The position numbers and the translations under genes are program-made. Of a stretch of DNA of 62,023 nt, positions 11,579 through 55,153 are shown piece by piece (within the stretch, counting starts at the first letter, position 1; each line of letters starts with the position of its first letter). Source of the stretch: a virus. The stretch is from the IMG/VR virus record IMGVR_UViG_3300001687_001193. One strand, written 5' to 3'. Below the pieces are notes generated by a model. The model was not told the DNA's origin and did no database searches. It was given only the letters and a program-made list of their open reading frames with translations.

Positions 11579-12553
11579 ATGTCAGAAACTGCCGATTTCG
11601 ACCCTGGTCATTGGAGAGGACACGATTTCAAGTCTGCTCGCAGAGCATATGATGTTCACGTCGACCGTAGCTACGACGATGCCGTTAAAGCTGGCAAATC
11701 TGTTAAGGACATGGTGCCAGGCGTTATTAAGACTAACAGTCCGGCGCCGTTGGTTATTCTGTGTGATGTTACCGGATCTATGGGCGAATGGCCAGCTACT
11801 ATCTTTTCGAAGCTGCCATACCTGGAACTGGAAGCTCAAGAATACCTTGGCGACAAGATGGAAATTTGCTGGGGAGCAATTGGCGACTACACTTGCGACA
11901 AATATCCACTACAGATTAGAAAGTTTACGAAGGGCGTCAAACTAAAGGACGAGTTAAAAGAGTTGATCGTCGAAGGTGGTGGCGGCGGTGGTGCCAGGGA
12001 AAGCTATGAGATGGCCGGTCTCTATTGCGCTAGGAACATTGAGATGCCGAAGGCTCTAAAGCCGATACTCATCATTATAGGTGATGAAGGATTTTACGAG
12101 ACTATTAACAAGTCAGACGCTAAGAAATACGCGCTGGTAAGCCTGCAGTCTAGGGTAAGTGCCAAAGAGGTATTTGCGGAGCTGCAAACAAAATTTTCCG
12201 TATATGTCGTCAGAAAGCCTTATGGTTACTTTAGGGGCGACAAAACCAGCGATGCTGACAAGACGATTCATGCCCAATGGGCAGAAGTCGTAGGAGATGA
12301 TAGGATTGTTATGCTGCCAGATGCTGGAAGAGTGGTGGACGTCATCTTTGGGTTGCTGGCGAGAGAGACTGATAGAGTCGAGTATTTCGAAGATGAGCTA
12401 AAAGATAGGCAGAAACCGGGTCAAGTTAAGACAGTGATGAAGGCTCTTGAAACGATACACGGCCTTGCTTCTGATAGCAAAAAGCTCTTAAGATCTGGTG
12501 CGTCGAAGATGCACAAGAAAAGTGATGGCAAGAAAACCAAATCGCTCCTATAG
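11579..12553 (+). CDS. von Willebrand factor A (vWA) domain protein
   Basis: AAGGAG RBS; MIDAS-like LCDVTGSMG; poly-Gly run. Confidence 0.55.
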   Translation: MSETADFDPGHWRGHDFKSARRAYDVHVDRSYDDAVKAGKSVKDMVPGVIKTNSPAPLVILCDVTGSMGEWPATIFSKLPYLELEAQEYLGDKMEICWGAIGDYTCDKYPLQIRKFTKGVKLKDELKELIVEGGGGGGARESYEMAGLYCARNIEMPKALKPILIIIGDEGFYETINKSDAKKYALVSLQSRVSAKEVFAELQTKFSVYVVRKPYGYFRGDKTSDADKTIHAQWAEVVGDDRIVMLPDAGRVVDVIFGLLARETDRVEYFEDELKDRQKPGQVKTVMKALETIHGLASDSKKLLRSGASKMHKKSDGKKTKSLL

Positions 12554-26926: not shown

Positions 26927-27113
26927 TACAGAAAAGCAGGCCTGGATAAACTTAGAATCGCGGTCGGTTATGGGCACTCGCCGAGAATTTTGCGCGCGGG
27001 AAATACGGCGATGCAGATGACTTTGACGAAGCCATAGCAACCATTGATTTTGAGGATGCAATAGGTAATTATATGGCAGATCTTGCGCTTGATTCAGGTG
27101 ACGAAGAAAACTA

Positions 27114-27185
27114 GGCGAGTCCGCGTTTGGGCAAATTCACCTTTGTAGCGGGGGAGAATCGTGGGTTCAATTCCCATGCTCGCCG
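27114..27185 (+). other. tRNA-like element with canonical acceptor and T-arm but no foldable anticodon arm
   Basis: Acceptor GGCGAGT/GCTCGCC, T-arm GTGGG-TTCAATT-CCCAT, total 72 nt; an exhaustive hand search of the 40-nt core found no 5-bp stem with a 7-nt loop. Confidence 0.3.
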
Positions 27186-27190
27186 CTTAT

Positions 27191-27262
27191 GGTGGATATA
27201 GTGTAATGGTAGCATACCTCGCTGTGACCGAGTCGGAAAGGGTTCGAATCCCTTTATCCACC
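27191..27262 (+). tRNA. tRNA-His(GTG) with genome-encoded G-1 and C73
   Basis: G-1 then acceptor GTGGATA/TATCCAC, anticodon loop CTGTGAC, T-arm AAGGG-TTCGAAT-CCCTT, discriminator C. Confidence 0.6.
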
Positions 27263-32705: not shown

Positions 32706-33023
32706 ATGAATGATTCTTACTGTCCGGATTGCGGCGGATATCTGTATTGGCACGCATCGGATTGTCCCAGCGCGGCCGATGTTCGGCATGTACTCGAGGG
32801 GATAATAAGGAAATATCGCGAGCGCGTTGCCGCCCTTGAAAAAGAAAACGAAGACCTTCGGAATTATCGCGATTGTTGTGACTGCGTTAATCATATTGAG
32901 CGTATTGCACGTCTTAAGATCCTTTTAACGGCAACAATTGGATATGTGGAACAATGCGGTGCGTTTGGCCTAGCAAATGAAATTCGCAATGTGTTTGCTG
33001 AGCTAACAGCATACGATTTATAA
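32706..33023 (+). CDS. hypothetical protein (CPDCGGYLYWH family, AT-normal copy)
   Basis: N-terminal MNDSYCPDCGGYLYWHASDCP is paralogous to ORF 40447. Confidence 0.45.
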   Translation: MNDSYCPDCGGYLYWHASDCPSAADVRHVLEGIIRKYRERVAALEKENEDLRNYRDCCDCVNHIERIARLKILLTATIGYVEQCGAFGLANEIRNVFAELTAYDL

Positions 33024-33040
33024 GCACTAGCGCAGTCGAA

Positions 33041-33247
33041 GTGGGGTTAAGATATATGACAGAACATAAAAAACCGCCGGTGTTGTATGTCAATATGCCG
33101 GATGAAATAAGAAGACGAGTTTATAATCATGAAGTATTATTGTCTTTTGGACGCGATGACGACGCCGTGATGTTTATATATTGGTGGAATCAGCGCGGCA
33201 AGAGGCTTTTCGATGAGTGGCGCGAATGCAATTTCGAAGAATTTTAA
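33041..33247 (+). CDS. hypothetical protein
   Basis: 68-aa ORF. Confidence 0.3.
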   Translation: MGLRYMTEHKKPPVLYVNMPDEIRRRVYNHEVLLSFGRDDDAVMFIYWWNQRGKRLFDEWRECNFEEF

Positions 33248-33259
33248 TATCAGAGTAGA

Positions 33260-33343
33260 AGGAGAGTACTGCTGAATGGTCGGCAACACGGCCCGAACCC
33301 GTGGGCGGTCTTCATGGCTGGGCGTTCGATTCGTCTACTCTCC
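33260..33343 (+). tRNA. tRNA-Ser(CGA)
   Basis: Class II fold: acceptor GGAGAGT/ACTCTCC, 3-bp D stem, anticodon stem CACGG/CCGTG, loop CCCGAAC, 16-nt variable arm, T-arm GGGCG-TTCGATT-CGTCT, G73. Confidence 0.55.
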
Positions 33344-33347
33344 GCTA

Positions 33348-33432
33348 TGGTAGGGCAAGCCGATGGGCGACGGCAGCTGGTTTGAACCCAGTCGAGCGTA
33401 ACTGCCTTGGGGGTTCGATTCCCTCCCCTACC
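33348..33432 (+). tRNA. tRNA-Ser(TGA)
   Basis: Class II fold: acceptor GGTAGGG/CCCTACC, anticodon stem GCTGG/CCAGT, loop TTTGAAC, 16-nt variable arm, T-arm GGGGG-TTCGATT-CCCTC, G73. Confidence 0.55.
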
Positions 33433-33493
33433 GCGAAGGGAGGGATCCCTTATATTTCGATTACTCTAACTGTCAGCAACAAGGAGGATAACT

Positions 33494-34897: not shown

Positions 34898-34973
34898 ATA
34901 GGGACGGGTTTCCTAGCTGGCCTGCTAAGCCATGCGCGTCGAGAGGCGTCTAGTTCAAATCTAGTGCCCTCCG
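34889..34973 (+). tRNA. tRNA-Ser(GCT) (probable)
   Basis: Acceptor GGAGGGT/GCCCTCC, anticodon stem (C)TGGC/GCCA(T), loop CTGCTAA, 15-nt variable arm, T-arm TCTAG-TTCAAAT-CTAGT, G73; the D arm is irregular. Confidence 0.4.
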
Positions 34974-34980
34974 CTTTGTG

Positions 34981-35138
34981 TTAGTTGTCAACTTGCAAGA
35001 CAGCCTAACTTGCACACCATAGCATACAAAAAGAAGTCTCCAGTATATGGATTCGACAAATTGATAGTCGAACGCAGCTATGTGCCGCCCGACATTCCTT
35101 ATAACCCAACTATTGAGGATTTTAGATGAATTTTAAAA
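34981..35138 (+). repeat. 158-bp direct repeat, copy 2 (degenerate pseudo-copy of the 3' end of gene 33684-34031 plus the start of 34028)
   Basis: An in-frame stop appears in copy 2. Confidence 0.7.
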
Positions 35139-35219
35139 TCCGTGCCGGCTATGATTCCTGATAGACGGAAAATCTTCGATTCTAGAAGAGCCCCTAACCT
35201 TCATTGGAAAATTAAAATC

Positions 35220-40311: not shown

Positions 40312-40446
40312 TTGGTGTCATAGATTGACAAGATGCGAGGACTTAGTTGAATGGCCCCCTACAGGCGGTGAATTCATGATTATCTGTATGAGGTGTTGTC
40401 AAAGATTGAAAATAAGGCCCAATAAGGCATTAGGAGGCAATGAACG

Positions 40447-40770
40447 ATGAGCGACAGCAACTGTCCGGATTGTGGCGGGTATCTGTACTGGCACAAAACG
40501 GACTGCCCGAGAACAACAGAGAAACTTCGCGCCCGCATCGCCGACCTAGAGGCCGAGGTGGAGCGGCTGCGAAGCTACATCAGGGGCGTACAAGAGGCGC
40601 AGGCAGTGTCTGAATCGCTGGCCAGTGAGCGCAGCATCGAGGTGGAGCGGCTGCGGGGGTTGCTGCGGAAGGCGTTGAAGGCGTTTGAGGGGTGTATCTG
40701 CGGTGACGAAACGCGAAAGTGCGCAGACATTGAGCGCCGCATCGAAGCCGCGCTGAAGGAGGGGCAGTGA
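40447..40770 (+). CDS. hypothetical protein (CPDCGGYLYWH family, GC-rich copy)
   Basis: N-terminus paralogous to ORF 32706; about 60 percent GC versus about 42 percent background; internal 17-bp direct repeat GAGGTGGAGCGGCTGCG. Confidence 0.45.
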   Translation: MSDSNCPDCGGYLYWHKTDCPRTTEKLRARIADLEAEVERLRSYIRGVQEAQAVSESLASERSIEVERLRGLLRKALKAFEGCICGDETRKCADIERRIEAALKEGQ

Positions 40771-40817
40771 ACCACATCACCCAGCTCACTTTCCTTGCTG
40801 GGTTTACGCGTCTCTAG

Positions 40818-40892
40818 GCCCCAAAAGTGTTAATGGTTGCACGCTAGTTTCGTAATCTAGAAGACTTCGCGGTTCGATTCCGAGTTGGGGCT
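40818..40892 (+). other. tRNA-like element with apparent 9-nt anticodon loop
   Basis: Perfect acceptor GCCCCAA/TTGGGGC, T-arm CGCGG-TTCGATT-CCGAG, anticodon-region stem CTAG/CTAG with loop TTTCGTAAT. Confidence 0.3.
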
Positions 40893-41140
40893 CGCTTCCT
40901 TGCCCGCTGAGGGTTGAAGAGGTAGGGGACCAGAAGGTCTATACTAGTTATGACTGGAAGTCAGTTGCGTTAGCCGGTACCCCCGCAGAGGCGGGGCGGA
41001 AACGGGGCAAGCCGGCCCGATGGCTGGTGGGCATTTCGGTGTACAACGGATGCTCGGCCTAGGCGAGAGGTAGTTGCCACAACGGGAGACAGGGTTCGGC
41101 ACACTCCCACACCGCATGGTGCCGTCATACGCCCCTGAAG
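40893..41140. ncRNA. GC-rich structured noncoding region (candidate ncRNA) between two tRNA-like elements
   Basis: No + ORF; local GC about 60 percent; hairpins CCCCGC-AGAG-GCGGGG, TGACT-GGA-AGTCA, GGGAG...CTCCC. Confidence 0.25.
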
Positions 41141-41213
41141 CATTTATTGGATGATGCCTGGTCTTGTAAACCAGAGAATTCGGATCGTTACCGAGCTGGG
41201 GCTCGACTGTAAA
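41141..41213 (+). tRNA. tRNA-Thr(TGT)-like with atypical T-loop (ATCGTTA)
   Basis: Acceptor GCCCCTG/CTGGGGC (1 mismatch), D GCAT/ATGC, anticodon stem CTGGT/ACCAG, loop CTTGTAA, T-arm TTCGG-ATCGTTA-CCGAG. Confidence 0.4.
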
Positions 41214-41224
41214 ATGGAGAGATA

Positions 41225-41662
41225 ATGAAGAGAAAATCAAGCATGCAACGCTATGCGGAAAGATATCCTGGGTGCAGATTCGTGGGGTTTTGGCGGAAAT
41301 ATAAATATGAAGAGGACTATTTTTCTTCCTCTGTAATTCTACGGGCAAGAGAATTAGAAGATATTGAGGACGATTTTAACGTAGATTGCTTGCCATGGCC
41401 AGCAGATCTAGTAGATGAGGCACAGAGCCCAGTTATCTTAGAAAAGCTCGCGGAATATCTAGATAAATGCCCCAACAAAGAAAAATATTGCGGCTATTCC
41501 AGATGTCGGATATGTAAAGAACATGTTGGATCTAAGGACAAAGGAGACGGAACTTGGGTGTGGCCTGAGGGTTTGTCGCATTACGTACGAGAACACAAAG
41601 TGAAGCTACCTGATGATTTTATTAGGTGGGTTATTTATGGTGTACAGGAGCAAGAATCATGA
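41225..41662 (+). CDS. hypothetical protein
   Basis: GGAGAGATA then ATG; CxxC pairs. Confidence 0.4.
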   Translation: MKRKSSMQRYAERYPGCRFVGFWRKYKYEEDYFSSSVILRARELEDIEDDFNVDCLPWPADLVDEAQSPVILEKLAEYLDKCPNKEKYCGYSRCRICKEHVGSKDKGDGTWVWPEGLSHYVREHKVKLPDDFIRWVIYGVQEQES

Positions 41663-42429: not shown

Positions 42430-45201
42430 ATGTTGGACAAGATACGCAAAGCCATAGAAAATAGGCTCAATAAGAAATATATCTCCAACCCAACATCTGA
42501 AGAAAACCTTTGGTCTTACATTGAAAAGACAGAGCGCGAGCTAGAAATCGCCGAAGGCGAACTTAGGGCTCTTAGAGAAAAAATAAAAGCGTTAGCCGAT
42601 CGAACTGGATTCCGTGGCATATTTCTAGAGTTTGTGGGGCCTCGCAGAGCGTTGGTGGCAATAGGTCCGCTTAAGGAAGAAGTGCTTATCACCCCGAATG
42701 TAGAAGAATCGCGGCTAAAAAAGGGCTGCGAAGTCTTAATTACCCTCGACGATAATGGTAAAATGTTGTCTGAGGATCGTGGACGCAGCGCATATGGCGG
42801 CAGAGTAGGCAAAATACATATGGTGTTAGACTCGGAACGAGTATTGATCGAGGAAGCTGGTCATATCGCTATGTTTATTCTAGCCGAAGGAGTGGAATGT
42901 CAAACTGGCGACGAGGTACGATACGATCCAATTTCTCAAGTAGTATTCGAAGTGATTGGAGAAAAGAGAGAATCGGCCTTCGCTTTGGCGGAACAACCTA
43001 AAACTACTTTCGACGATGTAAAAGGCTTGTGCGAAGAAAAAGAGTTTCTCAAAGAAAAGATAATATATCCTATAATTTACAGCGATAAGTTTGAAAAATA
43101 TGGGATTAAGCCCGCGAGAGGGATCTTGTTTCATGGTCCTCCTGGTTGTGGTAAAGCCCAACCCCTAGATAGTTTGGTGTTGACTCCCAACGGTTATGTA
43201 AAAATGGGAGACATTTTGCCTGGAAGTTTTGTCTCTACTCCAGACGGCAATAGTGCCAAAGTTCTGGAAACGTTTCCTCAAGGTGAAATAGAAATTTATA
43301 AAGTAAATTTTAGCGATGGAACATCAGCGGAGTGTTGTGAAAATCATTTATGGAAAATACGAAATAAATATGACATCGCAATGAAGCGACACGGCAGAGT
43401 AGTAAAACTTAAAGATATTATGTATAAGGTAAAACTTCCTTCAGGACGCAGGAAATATTCCATTCCGATGACAAAGCCGGTTAAATTTGTTAGACACAGC
43501 GTTCCACTTGATCCATATTTACTCGGGTGTTTACTTGGTGACGGTTCTTTTAGTAGCAAAAAGGTGGGTTTTACTACAATGGATCGTGAGATTATTGACA
43601 CTCTAACTCCGATTATACGTCGCCTGGGTTGTAAATTTACGAGACATGATAGATATAATTACGATATCGTAGAAATATTAAAACAGAGCGGCCCTGTTGG
43701 CCGCGCAGTAGAATCTATCACTGATAGCGGTGAAGTTATTACTTACGATTGTATCTCGTCTGCGGTGGCAGCTGGGTTTAGTAAACACGGAATATATAAA
43801 ACTTGTTCTGGGCGACAGCACACGCATGGGGGCAGAAGGTGGAGATTTTTACAGAAATTGGCTGCAGCACACCACCCAATAAAAAATGCGTTGCACCAAC
43901 TTTGCCTGTTTGGGACAAGATCTTCCGAGAAATTTGTGCCTCACGTCTATAAGATTAACTCTAGACAAATTAGACTTTCTCTATTAAGAGGATTAATGGA
44001 TACGGATGGGTGTGTCGACAAAAAGGGCATGACTGTATTTTTCTCCAGTACATCATATCAGTTAATAATGGATGTTAAATTTCTCGTGGAATCACTTGGT
44101 GGGAAAGCTAAAGTGGGTCGCCCACGCAAATCTAAGTATCGAAAGAACACTGGCGAAGTCGTAGAAACCGGCAATGTATCCCATAATCTTTTCATTTCCA
44201 TGCCACCCGACATAAACCCATTTCTGGTATCCCGAAAAAGGCTGCGCGTATGCCCCAAAACCAAGTATCCACCGACGAGATATATAGAAGAAATATGTTA
44301 TGTGGGCAAAAAGAAAGCGCAGTGCATATTAATAGACCATCCAGATCATTTATATATAACAAATGATTTCATTGTTACACATAACACATATCTAGGAGAA
44401 GCGGTATTCAACGAGTCCATGAAAATCAGGGGTGGAAAAACTGCCGGCAAGGGTTTTTTCCTGGTGAATGGACCAGAAATATTATCAAAATGGGCCGGCA
44501 ACACTGAACTAGCCATAAGAGAGGTGTTCGAGGCGGCACGACGAGAAGCTAATACCTCCGGATTTCCATCGGTTATATTCTGGGACGAAGTAGACAGCGT
44601 GGCTGGGAGGAGAAAAGATGTTGATACATTTACTCCAGAAAAGACTGTTGTTCCCACATTGTTGTCCGAAATACACGGAATTAACAACACGAACAATGTT
44701 ATTTTTATCGGAGCGACCAATATGCCTAATTTAATTGACCCAGCCTTAATGCGCCCTGGGAGACTTGGAGACGCGATTATAGAAATCCCGAGGCCCGAAA
44801 GTAATGCCGCAATGGACATTTTAGATAAGGAGTTCAACCGTGAGAGTCTCCCAGCAGCCCTTACAGCTCTTTTAAAAGAAGGCCTGACTCAACGGATAGT
44901 TGACCATTGTTATGCGAACACCAAACCTCTTGCATATGCGAGCAGGAAAAGTGGTGCTAAGCAACCACTAATGAGACAGGAATTGGTGAGCGGTGCACTA
45001 TTCGCCCAGATTGGGGAGGATTTGGTGCGTAGAGCCTGCATGGCAGAGATAGATGAATCTAGGCCACCCACAATTGAAGATGCTATAGACATGGTAGATA
45101 ACATATTATTGACACAGATTGGAGTGTTGGATGCTGGCGTGAAAAGTGGTTTTACTATCGATACTTCTGACTACGTTGTCGATGTATCATTAGATGGGTA
45201 A
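42430..45201 (+). CDS. AAA+ ATPase of the proteasome-activating (PAN/ARC/Rpt/Cdc48-like) type, interrupted by an intein in the Walker A motif
   Basis: N-terminal coiled coil. Walker A GPPGCGK|...|T is split by the insert, then Walker B VIFWDEVD and the SRH ATNMPNLIDPALMRPGRLGDAIIEIPRP follow. The extein is about 513 aa. Confidence 0.75.
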   Translation: MLDKIRKAIENRLNKKYISNPTSEENLWSYIEKTERELEIAEGELRALREKIKALADRTGFRGIFLEFVGPRRALVAIGPLKEEVLITPNVEESRLKKGCEVLITLDDNGKMLSEDRGRSAYGGRVGKIHMVLDSERVLIEEAGHIAMFILAEGVECQTGDEVRYDPISQVVFEVIGEKRESAFALAEQPKTTFDDVKGLCEEKEFLKEKIIYPIIYSDKFEKYGIKPARGILFHGPPGCGKAQPLDSLVLTPNGYVKMGDILPGSFVSTPDGNSAKVLETFPQGEIEIYKVNFSDGTSAECCENHLWKIRNKYDIAMKRHGRVVKLKDIMYKVKLPSGRRKYSIPMTKPVKFVRHSVPLDPYLLGCLLGDGSFSSKKVGFTTMDREIIDTLTPIIRRLGCKFTRHDRYNYDIVEILKQSGPVGRAVESITDSGEVITYDCISSAVAAGFSKHGIYKTCSGRQHTHGGRRWRFLQKLAAAHHPIKNALHQLCLFGTRSSEKFVPHVYKINSRQIRLSLLRGLMDTDGCVDKKGMTVFFSSTSYQLIMDVKFLVESLGGKAKVGRPRKSKYRKNTGEVVETGNVSHNLFISMPPDINPFLVSRKRLRVCPKTKYPPTRYIEEICYVGKKKAQCILIDHPDHLYITNDFIVTHNTYLGEAVFNESMKIRGGKTAGKGFFLVNGPEILSKWAGNTELAIREVFEAARREANTSGFPSVIFWDEVDSVAGRRKDVDTFTPEKTVVPTLLSEIHGINNTNNVIFIGATNMPNLIDPALMRPGRLGDAIIEIPRPESNAAMDILDKEFNRESLPAALTALLKEGLTQRIVDHCYANTKPLAYASRKSGAKQPLMRQELVSGALFAQIGEDLVRRACMAEIDESRPPTIEDAIDMVDNILLTQIGVLDAGVKSGFTIDTSDYVVDVSLDG
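43156..44385 (+). other. intein (410 aa) with LAGLIDADG homing-endonuclease domain, inserted between K242 and T653 of the P-loop
   Basis: Begins AQPLDSLVLTPNGYVKMGDI (block-A-like), contains LLGCLLGDGSF and LLRGLMDTDGCV (two LAGLIDADG motifs), ends IVTHN followed by Thr +1. Joining the exteins restores GPPGCGKT. Confidence 0.7.
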
Positions 45202-45416: not shown

Positions 45417-45773
45417 ATGTCGGATGACTATTATGAATCAATAGAGATTGTGTATCCGAAGAAGGGAAAGCATGAGAAGAAATCACAGCGCGGAAAGAAA
45501 GTGAAGCCTGTGAGAAAGGTATACCACGTAGTATGTAGTAAGCTTAAAGTCAAAAAGGATGGAATGGCTACACACAAAAACGTGTGGAAGGTCAAACTCG
45601 CAGGAAAATCTACCGTGGCAAACGGTGTATTTTCCAAAAAAAGCGATGCTATAGCCCGTGCCAAGGAATTAGGAAAGAAGGCGAAGCTCGGACAAGTCGT
45701 GGTTCATGGCGTAGATGGCAAAATACAGACAGAATATACGTATGGTAACGATCCTAGAGATATAAAGGGTTAG
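45417..45773 (+). CDS. Lys-rich basic protein (possible nucleic-acid binding)
   Basis: GGAGAGAAACGG then ATG; more than 25 percent Lys/Arg. Confidence 0.4.
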   Translation: MSDDYYESIEIVYPKKGKHEKKSQRGKKVKPVRKVYHVVCSKLKVKKDGMATHKNVWKVKLAGKSTVANGVFSKKSDAIARAKELGKKAKLGQVVVHGVDGKIQTEYTYGNDPRDIKG

Positions 45774-54847: not shown

Positions 54848-55092
54848 ACCTAAAAGAATTGAAATATGTAATAGATTCTGCGCTAGACAAATGTCCAGGA
54901 GCAGCACAATGGGATATTATTGTATCACGAGATGGAACTATGAGGGAAGAACTCTTTGAGGTAGATGGAGTAGAAAGCTGTGTATATGAACCAGATCCTA
55001 CTTTAATAGGCAATTATTTTAGGGTAAGAATTGCAGAAAGCGAAGAAAAAGAAAACGCGCTGTGTTTTTATGTTTTGCCAAGCTCCCGCTAG
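54844..55092 (+). CDS. hypothetical protein
   Basis: 82-aa ORF; ATGA overlap. Confidence 0.35.
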   Translation: MNLKELKYVIDSALDKCPGAAQWDIIVSRDGTMREELFEVDGVESCVYEPDPTLIGNYFRVRIAESEEKENALCFYVLPSSR

Positions 55093-55153
55093 TGGATTTC
55101 TAGACTCGGGACTCCTAATCCTGATGTTCCCGGTTCGATTCCGGGCGGGAGTT
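55082..55153 (+). tRNA. tRNA-Arg(CCT) (probable)
   Basis: Acceptor GCTCCCG/CGGGAGT (1 GU), anticodon stem CGGGA/TCCTG (1 GU), loop CTCCTAA, T-arm CCCGG-TTCGATT-CCGGG. Confidence 0.45.

Follow-up and report, generated by a model that had tools for sequence, protein, structure and literature searches.

A window of 62,023 nucleotides from a huge phage (the whole stretch of DNA analysed here, IMG/VR record IMGVR_UViG_3300001687_001193) contains a short island that is much richer in GC than the rest. The island comprises a gene, two tRNA-like elements and a noncoding stretch between these elements. A preliminary description, made from the letters of the window, considered it a possible remnant of a small horizontally acquired element or, alternatively, a structured non-coding RNA such as an intron. 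The question is what this island consists of, where its composition comes from and whether the stretch between the tRNAs is an RNA in its own right. The relevant features are as follows; coordinates are those of the window and the evidence is given in brackets.

40447-40770, + strand: orphan gene of 107 aa, zinc knuckle and long helix (open reading frame, ribosome-binding site, paralogy, codon-position GC)
32706-33023, + strand: its paralog, 105 aa, 45.6% GC, GC3 0.39
40554-40571, + strand: direct repeat, copy 1 (18 bp, CGAGGTGGAGCGGCTGCG)
40638-40655, + strand: direct repeat, copy 2 (18 bp)
40780-40805, + strand: hairpin CCCAGC-(11 nt)-GCTGGG followed by TTT, between the stop codon of the gene and the first tRNA (sequence, folding)
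40818-40892, + strand: tRNA-Thr(CGU) (ARAGORN, Rfam, orthologs)
40893-41130, + strand: 238-nt non-coding spacer, 61% GC, no recognised family (ORF, period-3, homology and folding tests)
41131-41203, + strand: tRNA-Thr(UGU) of the type found in huge phages (ARAGORN, Rfam, homologs, covariation)

A GC-rich island with an orphan gene

The 786-nt region 40440-41225 has a GC content of 58.0% compared with 42.8% for the window, in good agreement with the first estimate of about 60% versus about 42%. It ranks first among all 786-nt windows (mean 42.8%, sd 2.6%) and is an outlier by about 6 sd; the runner-up that does not overlap with it reaches 51.4%. At a resolution of 60 nt the island resolves into two GC lobes, one at about 40490-40790 (the gene) and the other at about 40880-41120 (the spacer). 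The dip of 43-48% that separates them coincides with tRNA-Thr(CGU). The base composition is alike in both lobes, with 61.7% GC in the gene and 61.2% in the spacer and an excess of G over C in each. All genes of the island are on the + strand. The surrounding part of this huge phage genome is rich in tRNA genes, and the GC-rich gene is also found on a 461-kb contig. ARAGORN detected at least 24 tRNA genes on one strand of the 62-kb window, some of them arranged as adjacent isoacceptor pairs.

The gene at 40447-40770, which had been placed correctly from the start, has a ribosome-binding site (AGGAGG) 9 nt upstream and is joined to the preceding ORF by an ATGA overlap. It carries a period-3 GC signal (p=0.0002) and its GC3 is 0.75, while that of its neighbours and its paralog is 0.37-0.39. 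The product has an N-terminal zinc knuckle (CxxC...H...C) followed by a single long helix. An AlphaFold2 model (mean pLDDT 76) places this helix at residues 21-81 and is, as one long helix, uninformative. Searches against Pfam and PHROG resulted only in coiled-coil matches, all of them sub-threshold. Among 5.8 billion protein clusters and 1.84 billion representatives the sole homolog is the paralog in the same genome, and no relatives of the protein occur in IMG/VR.

The proposed paralogy with 32706-33023 is upheld by BLASTP (E 4e-18, 52% identity), albeit only for the N-terminal 44-54 residues. On the DNA level the two genes are about 82% identical across the first 62 nt, and the synonymous differences within this conserved part favour G or C in the GC-rich copy. 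The paralog is located upstream of an adjacent tRNA-Ser(CGA)/tRNA-Ser(UGA) pair and is missing at the syntenic site of a related phage (L022). The internal repeat of the GC-rich gene does exist, but it measures 18 bp and not the 17 bp (40555-40571 and 40639-40655) originally given; the copies are 100% identical and each encodes EVERLR inside the coiled coil. Downstream of the gene, the hairpin at 40780-40805 may, judging from its sequence, act as a weak terminator or in processing. It is absent from the calls of the terminator scan because its loop exceeds 8 nt.

The only related phage lineage that we found (L022/L024/L026) retains the flanking synteny and tRNA-Thr(CGU) but lacks both the GC-rich gene and the spacer. 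Relatives of the neighbouring 145-aa protein are absent from IMG/VR, and its homologs elsewhere are on short contigs without the tRNAs; the neighbouring AAA ATPase, when used as a query for relatives, gave only intein matches. A search with blastn against 50,697 phage records matched tRNA-Thr(UGU) and no other part of the block. Neither a homologous phage with the same block nor an overlooked protein was found, and these data support the view of a block that is specific to the lineage and foreign in composition.

Two threonine tRNA genes with similar 3' ends

The first tRNA, tRNA-Thr(CGU), scores 39.7 bits with the Rfam tRNA model (RF00005), which is above the gathering score of 29. It had been described as having a 9-nt anticodon loop; the loop actually has 7 nt and is closed by a U31.U39 mismatch, which is retained in the orthologs of L022 and L025 (L022:10641-10714 and L025:241-312). 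The gene has a canonical T-loop (UUCGAUU) and a 2-nt insertion ahead of the T-stem, and CCA is not encoded. With about 90% identity to the tRNA of the related phage, it looks native rather than foreign. Matches in a pattern scan were limited to the L022 lineage and one 1.1-kb contig, and the same scan of GTDB genomes was empty.

The identity of the second tRNA as a Thr(TGT) element was recognised in the preliminary description, although its position has to be moved from 41141-41213 to 41131-41203. With 26.1 bits (E 6e-4 in a 106-nt search) it remains just below the RF00005 gathering score of 29, and it is atypical in that nucleotide 26 is missing, U6.U67 is mismatched and the D-loop has 10 nt. 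Its T-loop, GGAUCGUUACC, carries the variant A54/U58. This loop is not degenerate, as had been assumed, since it is found in exactly the same form in homologs from five other huge-phage contigs. We found homologs of the tRNA in LR756502, LR745206 and four IMG/VR contigs of 55-476 kb; each of them scores about 45 bits, in contrast to the lower score of the window copy with its missing nucleotide and mismatch. In an alignment of the family (7 sequences, 4 distinct) the cloverleaf is 98.8% paired, compared with 34-45% in slid controls, and 7 pairs are altered on both sides. This tRNA-Thr(UGU) is a member of a conserved huge-phage family whose helices are kept by compensatory change.

A suitable comparison is provided by the tRNA gene clusters of huge and T4-like phages (Al-Shayeb et al. 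2020, PMC7162821). The second tRNA of the window is 81-83% identical to tRNA-Thr(UGU) genes that stand in dense tRNA arrays of phages with genomes of 634-642 kb, with which it shares the T-loop variant, and it also matches four more huge-phage contigs. The spacing of the Thr pair is different. Spacers in huge-phage tRNA arrays and in the rest of the window measure 2-100 nt, and other adjacent isoacceptor pairs in the window are separated by 2-3 nt, whereas the two tRNA-Thr genes enclose a GC-rich stretch of 238 nt.

The two tRNAs share a 3' motif at 40880-40894 and 41191-41205, as the preliminary description stated; it is part of a direct repeat of 25 nt over the tRNA 3' ends, in which the copies are 84% identical and 311 bp apart. 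The motif corresponds to the T-stem plus the acceptor stem. The description read this duplication as a sign of tRNA-targeted integration, and a directly repeated tRNA 3' end is indeed what the window has in common with tRNA-targeted integrative elements. If the duplicated 15-25 nt were the att sites of a small element integrated in a tRNA-Thr gene, however, the second copy would be expected to be a partial 3' fragment, and it is a whole tRNA with another anticodon and with its own conserved homologs. Furthermore, the 5' acceptor strands (GCCCC) are shared as well, because pairing requires that they match. The interval of just 311 bp contains no ORF, integrase or recombinase, and the trailing UCG is also found after unrelated tRNAs in L022. 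Similar ends are expected from the common acceptor-stem and T-stem design of two tRNAs that are charged by the same threonyl-tRNA synthetase. We consider integration at att sites a very remote explanation; what stands of the claim is the shared motif. By sequence, both elements are genuine and complete tRNA-Thr isoacceptor genes, presumably working, each with its own huge-phage homologs.

The spacer between the tRNA genes

The spacer at 40893-41130 abuts a tRNA at each end with zero gap. The absence of an ORF between the tRNAs, which had been noted before, is confirmed in that no ORF of at least 30 aa is present on the + strand. A period-3 GC signal is absent (p=0.65) and six-frame translations matched nothing in Pfam and PHROGs. 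When stretches of 1101 nt and 281 nt that include the spacer were searched in Rfam, nothing relevant appeared at E<=10, and only tRNAs were detected over the whole window at the gathering threshold. A plasmid search gave a single marginal match of 42 nt, which codes for a coiled coil, and left the spacer unmatched. Exact-pattern scans of IMG/VR and GTDB genomes were empty, as were blastn and nhmmer searches of the spacer against all retrieved loci and the remaining window.

The hairpins that were regarded as strong and as a sign of a structured RNA are no more numerous and no longer than in dinucleotide shuffles (P about 0.3). The minimum free energy (MFE) of the spacer has a z-score of +0.14, which means that there is no excess folding stability over shuffled sequence. 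These thermodynamic tests are weak evidence: an authentic RNase P RNA, that of L022, reaches just -0.6 in the same MFE z-score. By eye the spacer resembles a T-box motif (UUAGCCGGUACCCCCGC), with no support from Rfam. Because the spacer belongs to no known RNA family and its structure is at chance level, the region counts as an oddity of composition rather than as a demonstrated new RNA.

A tmRNA was rejected as a candidate. Such an RNA combines an alanine-type domain with G3.U70, a tag ORF ending in hydrophobic residues and Ala-Ala and a match to the model. ARAGORN reported none with default settings, Rfam gave no tmRNA match and both acceptor stems have C3-G70. A "permuted tmRNA" was called only at a threshold of 70%; it spans both tRNAs, its tag ends in ...NGCSA and it is a low-threshold artefact.

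We considered several explanations for the spacer. It is possible, though rather doubtful, that it represents a new family of non-coding RNA that is stable and functional, with a 3' end made by RNase P and a 5' end made by 3' maturation of the first tRNA. Its exact delimitation by two tRNAs speaks for this view, and so does the fact that it is the sole GC-rich noncoding gap of the window (61% versus 36-49% for all others); structured RNAs of AT-rich genomes are typically GC-enriched, and the tRNAs of the window have 49-67% GC. In the MFE model nt 57-237 are closed by an 8-bp helix, UAUGAC(U)GG/CCGUCAUA, which ends at the boundary of the second tRNA. All assemblies that cover the spacer (three completely, one partially) moreover agree on its sequence, and the related phage has a real structured RNA, an RNase P RNA, directly 5' of its tRNA(UGU). 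On the other hand, the folding energy and the hairpins are at chance level, no GNRA or UUCG tetraloop occurs among the hairpin loops and the Rfam searches were empty. Covariation gives no evidence, since the spacer has no homolog. The adjacent protein-coding gene is equally rich in GC, which suggests that the composition of the spacer comes from its origin and not from an RNA function. A noncoding stretch in this position is not in itself exceptional, as 5 of the 8 gaps in the window have noncoding leaders of 120-265 nt directly 5' of tRNAs. The tRNA cluster of phage T4 contains small stable RNAs, species 1 and 2 (rnaC/rnaD). By analogy, the spacer is a noncoding segment bounded by tRNAs, which the tRNA-processing enzymes would release with defined ends; it differs in having no sequence or structure relationship to these RNAs and no support from a family or from covariation. 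A more specific proposal, which we regard as improbable, is that the spacer is a lineage-specific, tRNA-punctuated stable RNA, released by RNase P and tRNA 3' processing, whose role during infection would lie in tRNA or translation biology, a niche that the sister lineage may fill with its own RNase P RNA beside tRNA(UGU).

The comparison with this RNase P RNA can be made directly. In L022 the sequence 11864-12133 is a class-A RNase P RNA (145.8 bits versus RNaseP_bact_a) that stops 4 nt before tRNA(UGU). Like the spacer it is GC-enriched, non-coding, about 240-270 nt long and ends at a tRNA(UGU), in the window tRNA-Thr(UGU), and motif likenesses can be seen by eye (GGAAGUC at 40956-40962, GGCCUAGGCGAGAGG versus GGCCUAGAUGAAUGAUGG and ACAGGGUUCGGC versus ACAGAAUCCCGCC). 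It is nonetheless hardly credible that the spacer corresponds to this L022 RNA as a phage RNase P RNA that has diverged or been minimised, because the spacer fails every sequence and model test as well as synteny. RNAs of RF00010 have a P1-P4 core, CR-I (GGAAAGUC), CR-IV and CR-V (ACAGAA..GGCUUA), and the candidate motifs yield no consistent P4 pairing. The Rfam families for RNase P, all classes included, were unmatched at E<=10 in the 1.1-kb and 281-nt searches. A custom covariance model (R1), constructed from the L022 RNA and the Rfam structure and run with filters off, gave at most 2.9 bits from trivial stems, and the whole window was empty. Local alignment to the L022 RNA did not surpass shuffled sequence (316/500), with a score of 17 and a shuffle mean of 17.6. 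Finally, the L022 RNA is downstream of a DUF2188 gene, whereas the spacer is upstream of a DUF2188 gene.

The size of 238 nt and the GC content resemble those of the smallest tRNA group I introns, and theta ribozymes are known beside phage tRNAs (PMC10879173). A group I intron would interrupt a tRNA, usually in the anticodon loop, and leave split exons around a conserved P3-P8 core; both tRNAs are intact, which leaves no split exons. An HDV-like or theta ribozyme would start at the tRNA 3' end with a P1 closed by G1.U and form a nested double pseudoknot. Such a P1 could not be drawn by hand after the first tRNA, where only 4 bp closed by G.A are available. The Rfam models for Intron_gpI, the HDV family and other introns and ribozymes were unmatched at E<=10, and the intron mode of ARAGORN added nothing at normal thresholds. 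With chance-level structure in addition, we find hardly any room for a self-splicing intron or a self-cleaving ribozyme of these or similar types, and the intron proposed in the preliminary description is not supported. It is almost as implausible that the island is due to a chimeric assembly or to the decay of a protein-coding gene. Stop-free stretches of 68 and 54 codons in two + frames of this GC-rich DNA would agree with decay, and one JGI contig (L029) terminates within the spacer, but the stretches have no start codon and, like the whole spacer, no coding signal. Four assemblies, derived from three samples, gave one and the same sequence, and the junctions are traversed in independent Logan, JGI and ENA assemblies; this rules out a chimera.

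Origin of the island and its significance

The explanation that we prefer, at about even chances, is that the island is a lineage-specific foreign patch in a plastic, tRNA-rich region of a huge phage and that the spacer is discarded in tRNA processing. Insertions of mobile genes are known to concentrate in the tRNA region of T4. The orphan gene is most economically explained as a xenolog of the paralog that resides at 32706; the orphan gene would have been acquired by recombination from an unsampled, GC-richer relative. The spacer most likely arrived with the foreign DNA. Since no donor and no homolog in any GC-rich genome was found, it is the composition that argues for a foreign origin. The native-looking tRNA-Thr(CGU) between the two GC lobes means that a single insertion would need recombination anchored at the tRNA; otherwise two events are required.

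The scan for promoters and terminators found neither inside the spacer, between the tRNAs, so that the spacer is probably transcribed through and would be co-transcribed with both tRNAs. A cut by RNase P at 41130/41131, together with maturation of the 3' end of the first tRNA, would then remove it as a by-product. A fact that speaks against a discarded spacer is that 238 nt of non-functional DNA with 61% GC are unusual for a compact phage; this size and composition could point instead to selection on an RNA.

The more notable by-product of the analysis is the RNase P RNA of the related phage. It is a convincing, reduced class-A RNA beside a tRNA, and in the searchable literature we came across no description of an RNase P RNA encoded by a phage. 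The GC-rich region as it stands is of little import: it adds two tRNA-Thr genes and an orphan gene to the accessory repertoire of huge phages and illustrates how patchy their tRNA regions are. The region would gain in importance if the spacer turned out to be a stable RNA; this would be a new non-coding RNA of phages, with ends defined by tRNA processing.

A GC-rich gene in a huge phage genome

The window comes from a huge phage genome. Its long ORFs all lie on the + strand, ARAGORN finds 24 tRNA genes in the 62 kb, and the contigs bearing the 107-aa protein of 40447-40770 in JGI, Logan and ENA assemblies reach 460,921 bp. The island and the paralog of its gene comprise the following features:

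40447-40770, +, orphan zinc-knuckle/coiled-coil gene, 107 aa (ORF, good ribosome-binding site, ATGA overlap with the upstream ORF)
40818-40892, +, tRNA-Thr(CGU) (Rfam 39.7 bits; gathering score 29)
40893-41130, +, noncoding spacer between the two tRNAs, 61% GC
41131-41203, +, tRNA-Thr(UGU) (Rfam 26.1 bits, just short of the gathering score of 29)
32706-33023, +, normal-GC paralog of the orphan gene (BLASTP, DNA identity)

Sliding-window analysis confirmed that the island is GC-rich. At 58.0% GC, 40440-41225 is the highest of all 786-nt windows against a background of 42.8% (the mean; sd 2.6%), and the next non-overlapping one has 51.4%. At a resolution of 60 nt the island resolves into two lobes, the gene (~40490-40790) and the spacer (~40880-41120), between which GC falls to 43-48% over tRNA-Thr(CGU). 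Gene and spacer resemble each other in their unusual make-up: both are ~61-62% GC, richer in G than in C, and poor in T.

The two gene copies are clearly related (BLASTP E 4e-18, 52% identity over 54 aligned positions; ~82% DNA identity in the first 62 nt). The paralogy noted in the preliminary description is thus sound, as is the difference in GC, with the qualification that homology is confined to the N-terminal zinc-knuckle part. GC by codon position is 0.62/0.48/0.75 in 40447-40770 and 0.58/0.40/0.39 in the paralog; the third-position value of other window genes is 0.36-0.44. The synonymous-site enrichment extends into the conserved N-terminal part, which suggests that all of the gene evolved in a genome of higher GC. 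The internal direct repeat, previously given as 17 bp, is a perfect repeat of 18 bp, and EVERLR is encoded twice in a predicted long helix. Only these two copies were found among 5.8 billion clusters and 1.84 billion representatives; the related phage locus L022 has no copy of the zinc-knuckle/coiled-coil gene, and none was found at the site syntenic with the paralog.

An adjacent pair of C34/U34 isoacceptors follows closely on each copy (32706-33434 and 40447-41203 with the genes that follow). Downstream of the paralog come a 59-aa gene, tRNA-Ser(CGA) and tRNA-Ser(UGA); downstream of the GC-rich copy come tRNA-Thr(CGU) and tRNA-Thr(UGU). These are two cases only, and in so tRNA-dense a region they may be due to chance. 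Further downstream, 42430-45201 (Pfam PF14528 and PF00004) encodes a 923-aa AAA ATPase split by an intein whose homing-endonuclease domain is of the LAGLIDADG type; the IMG/VR relatives found with it as query align to the intein part only (residues ~200-660).

Two threonine tRNA genes

Both tRNAs are additions to kinds that are already known. tRNA-Thr(CGU) is ~90% identical to its counterpart in the related phage (L022:10641-10714); the Metallophos proteins of the two phages are 60% identical. Its anticodon loop, first read as 9 nt, has 7 nt and is closed by a U31.U39 mismatch; since the same arm occurs in L022 and in the third lineage, L025, this is a conserved feature.

The second element is indeed a Thr(UGU) tRNA, although it lies at 41131-41203 and not at 41141-41213. 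In it nucleotide 26 is missing and U6.U67 is a mismatch. It belongs to a huge-phage tRNA-Thr(UGU) type: it matches LR756502 and LR745206 (642 and 635 kb), and four IMG/VR contigs, 55-476 kb in length, carry the type as well. The aligned members are:

window 41131-41203
L027:3003-3074
L033:7798-7870
L034:646-718
L035:1416-1488
L036:3147-3219

The T-loop GGAUCGUUACC, at first taken for degenerate, is an unusual one that the five aligned huge-phage homologs (~45 bits) have too. This loop, AUCGUUA, with A54 and U58 instead of the usual U54...A58, is strictly conserved in the six contigs (window included) and looks like a swapped reverse-Hoogsteen pair. Pairing in the family cloverleaf is 98.8%, against 34-45% in slid controls, and seven pairs are altered on both sides.

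The two tRNAs do share a 3' motif, which sits in a 25-nt repeat (84% identical) and consists of the 3' T-stem strand, the 3' acceptor-stem strand and the discriminator U. Their 5' acceptor strands are similar as well (GCCCCAA and GCCCCUG). Isoacceptors under one synthetase resemble each other by general tRNA identity rules, and such ends would be expected of two isoacceptors of one threonyl-tRNA synthetase. The proposal that they are att duplications left by tRNA-targeted integration fails: the second copy is part of a full tRNA that has an ancestry of its own, the copies are 311 bp apart, and no integrase is present.

Elsewhere in the window, ARAGORN missed two tRNAs that Rfam calls, 8108-8182 and 55083-55152. 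Rfam also calls one at 5295-5431 (54.5 bits over 136 nt) whose anticodon-loop region holds an insertion of 61 nt; in intron mode ARAGORN reads this tRNA as Cys(ACA) with intron (36,61). In its own right the insert looks tRNA-like (D-arm-like GGTCTAATTGGAAAGAC, T-arm-like TTAGGTTCGAGCCCTAA). The noncoding gaps 26927-27191 and 34898-35141 hold tRNA-like pieces below threshold in both ARAGORN and Rfam (for example GCGAG...GTGGGTTCAATTCCCATGCTCGC immediately 5' of tRNA-His, and ...CTAGTTCAAATCTAGTGCCCTCCGC), which may be atypical or decayed tRNAs.

The spacer between the tRNAs

Of the noncoding gaps in the window the spacer alone is GC-rich; seven others reach 120 nt or more, with 36-49% GC, and five of all eight lie directly upstream of tRNAs. 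As described before, it holds no ORF: the + strand between the tRNAs has none of at least 30 aa, stops occur in all frames, no start codon is usable, and its translations match neither Pfam nor PHROG. Period-3 GC is absent (p=0.65; 0.0002 in the gene). A scan found no promoter-like or terminator-like sites inside it. No similar sequence was found in phage and plasmid collections, IMG/VR, GTDB genomes, the rest of the window or the fetched loci. The spacer is identical in independent assemblies (two Logan contigs in full, a JGI contig from 41013 onward), which excludes an assembly chimera but also means that no sequence variants exist against which base-pairing could be checked.

The hairpins, described as strong, are what composition predicts: perfect hairpins are as many and as long as in dinucleotide shuffles (P ~0.3), and the MFE z-score is +0.14. 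Folding stability is no decisive test of structure in the spacer, since the genuine RNase P RNA of L022 itself scores only -0.6. No Rfam family matched at E<=10, even with a search space of only 281 nt. The intron reading, like those as att site, tmRNA, theta-ribozyme and RNase P RNA, lacks a tested defining feature; the theta-ribozyme was judged by Rfam search and hand check only. With its threshold lowered to 70% of the default, ARAGORN reports a permuted tmRNA over 40818-41204, spanning both tRNAs and the spacer (tag GTPAEAGRKRGKPARWLVGISVYNGCSA), which we judge an artefact of the flanking tRNAs because it has no G3.U70 and no Rfam tmRNA match.

The sister lineage encodes a bacterial class-A RNase P RNA (in L022, 145.8 bits with Rfam, gathering score 100, E 7.6e-47) at these sites:

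L022:11864-12133
L024:745-1014, -
L026:9959-10228, -

The contigs that carry it include IMGVR_UViG_3300028840_008185 (318 kb) and Ga0180437_10000007 (452 kb). The L022 RNA has 270 nt and lacks P3 and P13/P14, with CR-I, CR-IV, CR-V and P4 intact. It ends 4 nt 5' of an 81-nt tRNA(UGU); this tRNA has a long variable arm and reaches 39.9 bits with the tRNA-Sec model too. Because the spacer likewise ends at a tRNA(UGU), we considered it as a diverged counterpart, a reading that the tests led us to reject. No RNase P family of any class matches it, a covariance model made from the L022 RNA on the Rfam structure gives <=2.9 bits with filters off, and local alignment to that RNA is at shuffle level. 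Motifs picked by eye (GGAAGUC, GGCCUAGRYGA, ACAG..CGGC) yield no consistent P4 helix. Nor is the position syntenic: the L022 RNA is downstream of a DUF2188 gene, the spacer upstream of its homolog (45513-45770). The L022-based model found nothing across the whole window, and the 62 kb contain no RNase P RNA.

Origin of the patch

The L022 lineage lacks the GC-rich gene and the spacer, yet has tRNA-Thr(CGU) and the wider gene order; the region is evidently plastic. The composition common to gene and spacer, their absence from the related lineage, the two-copy family and the N-terminal GC enrichment favour an acquired patch. The horizontal origin suggested earlier may well hold in this form, as a foreign, lineage-specific patch recombined into the plastic region from an unsampled GC-richer relative; the route through att sites does not. 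The spacer would then be transcribed with both tRNAs and removed by an RNase P cut at 41130/41131 and 3' maturation of tRNA-Thr(CGU).

The main rival holds that the excised spacer is a functional stable RNA. The T4 tRNA cluster contains small stable RNAs, which the tRNA-flanked spacer would at most resemble in its working, with no family relationship. The exact tRNA boundaries, the GC content relative to other gaps and a predicted closing helix ending at the tRNA-Thr(UGU) boundary are compatible with such an RNA and no more, and we regard it as less likely than the acquired patch.

The island is a genuine anomaly of composition, though its core is ordinary. No phage-encoded RNase P RNA came up in the searchable literature, and that of the sister lineage merits separate attention.
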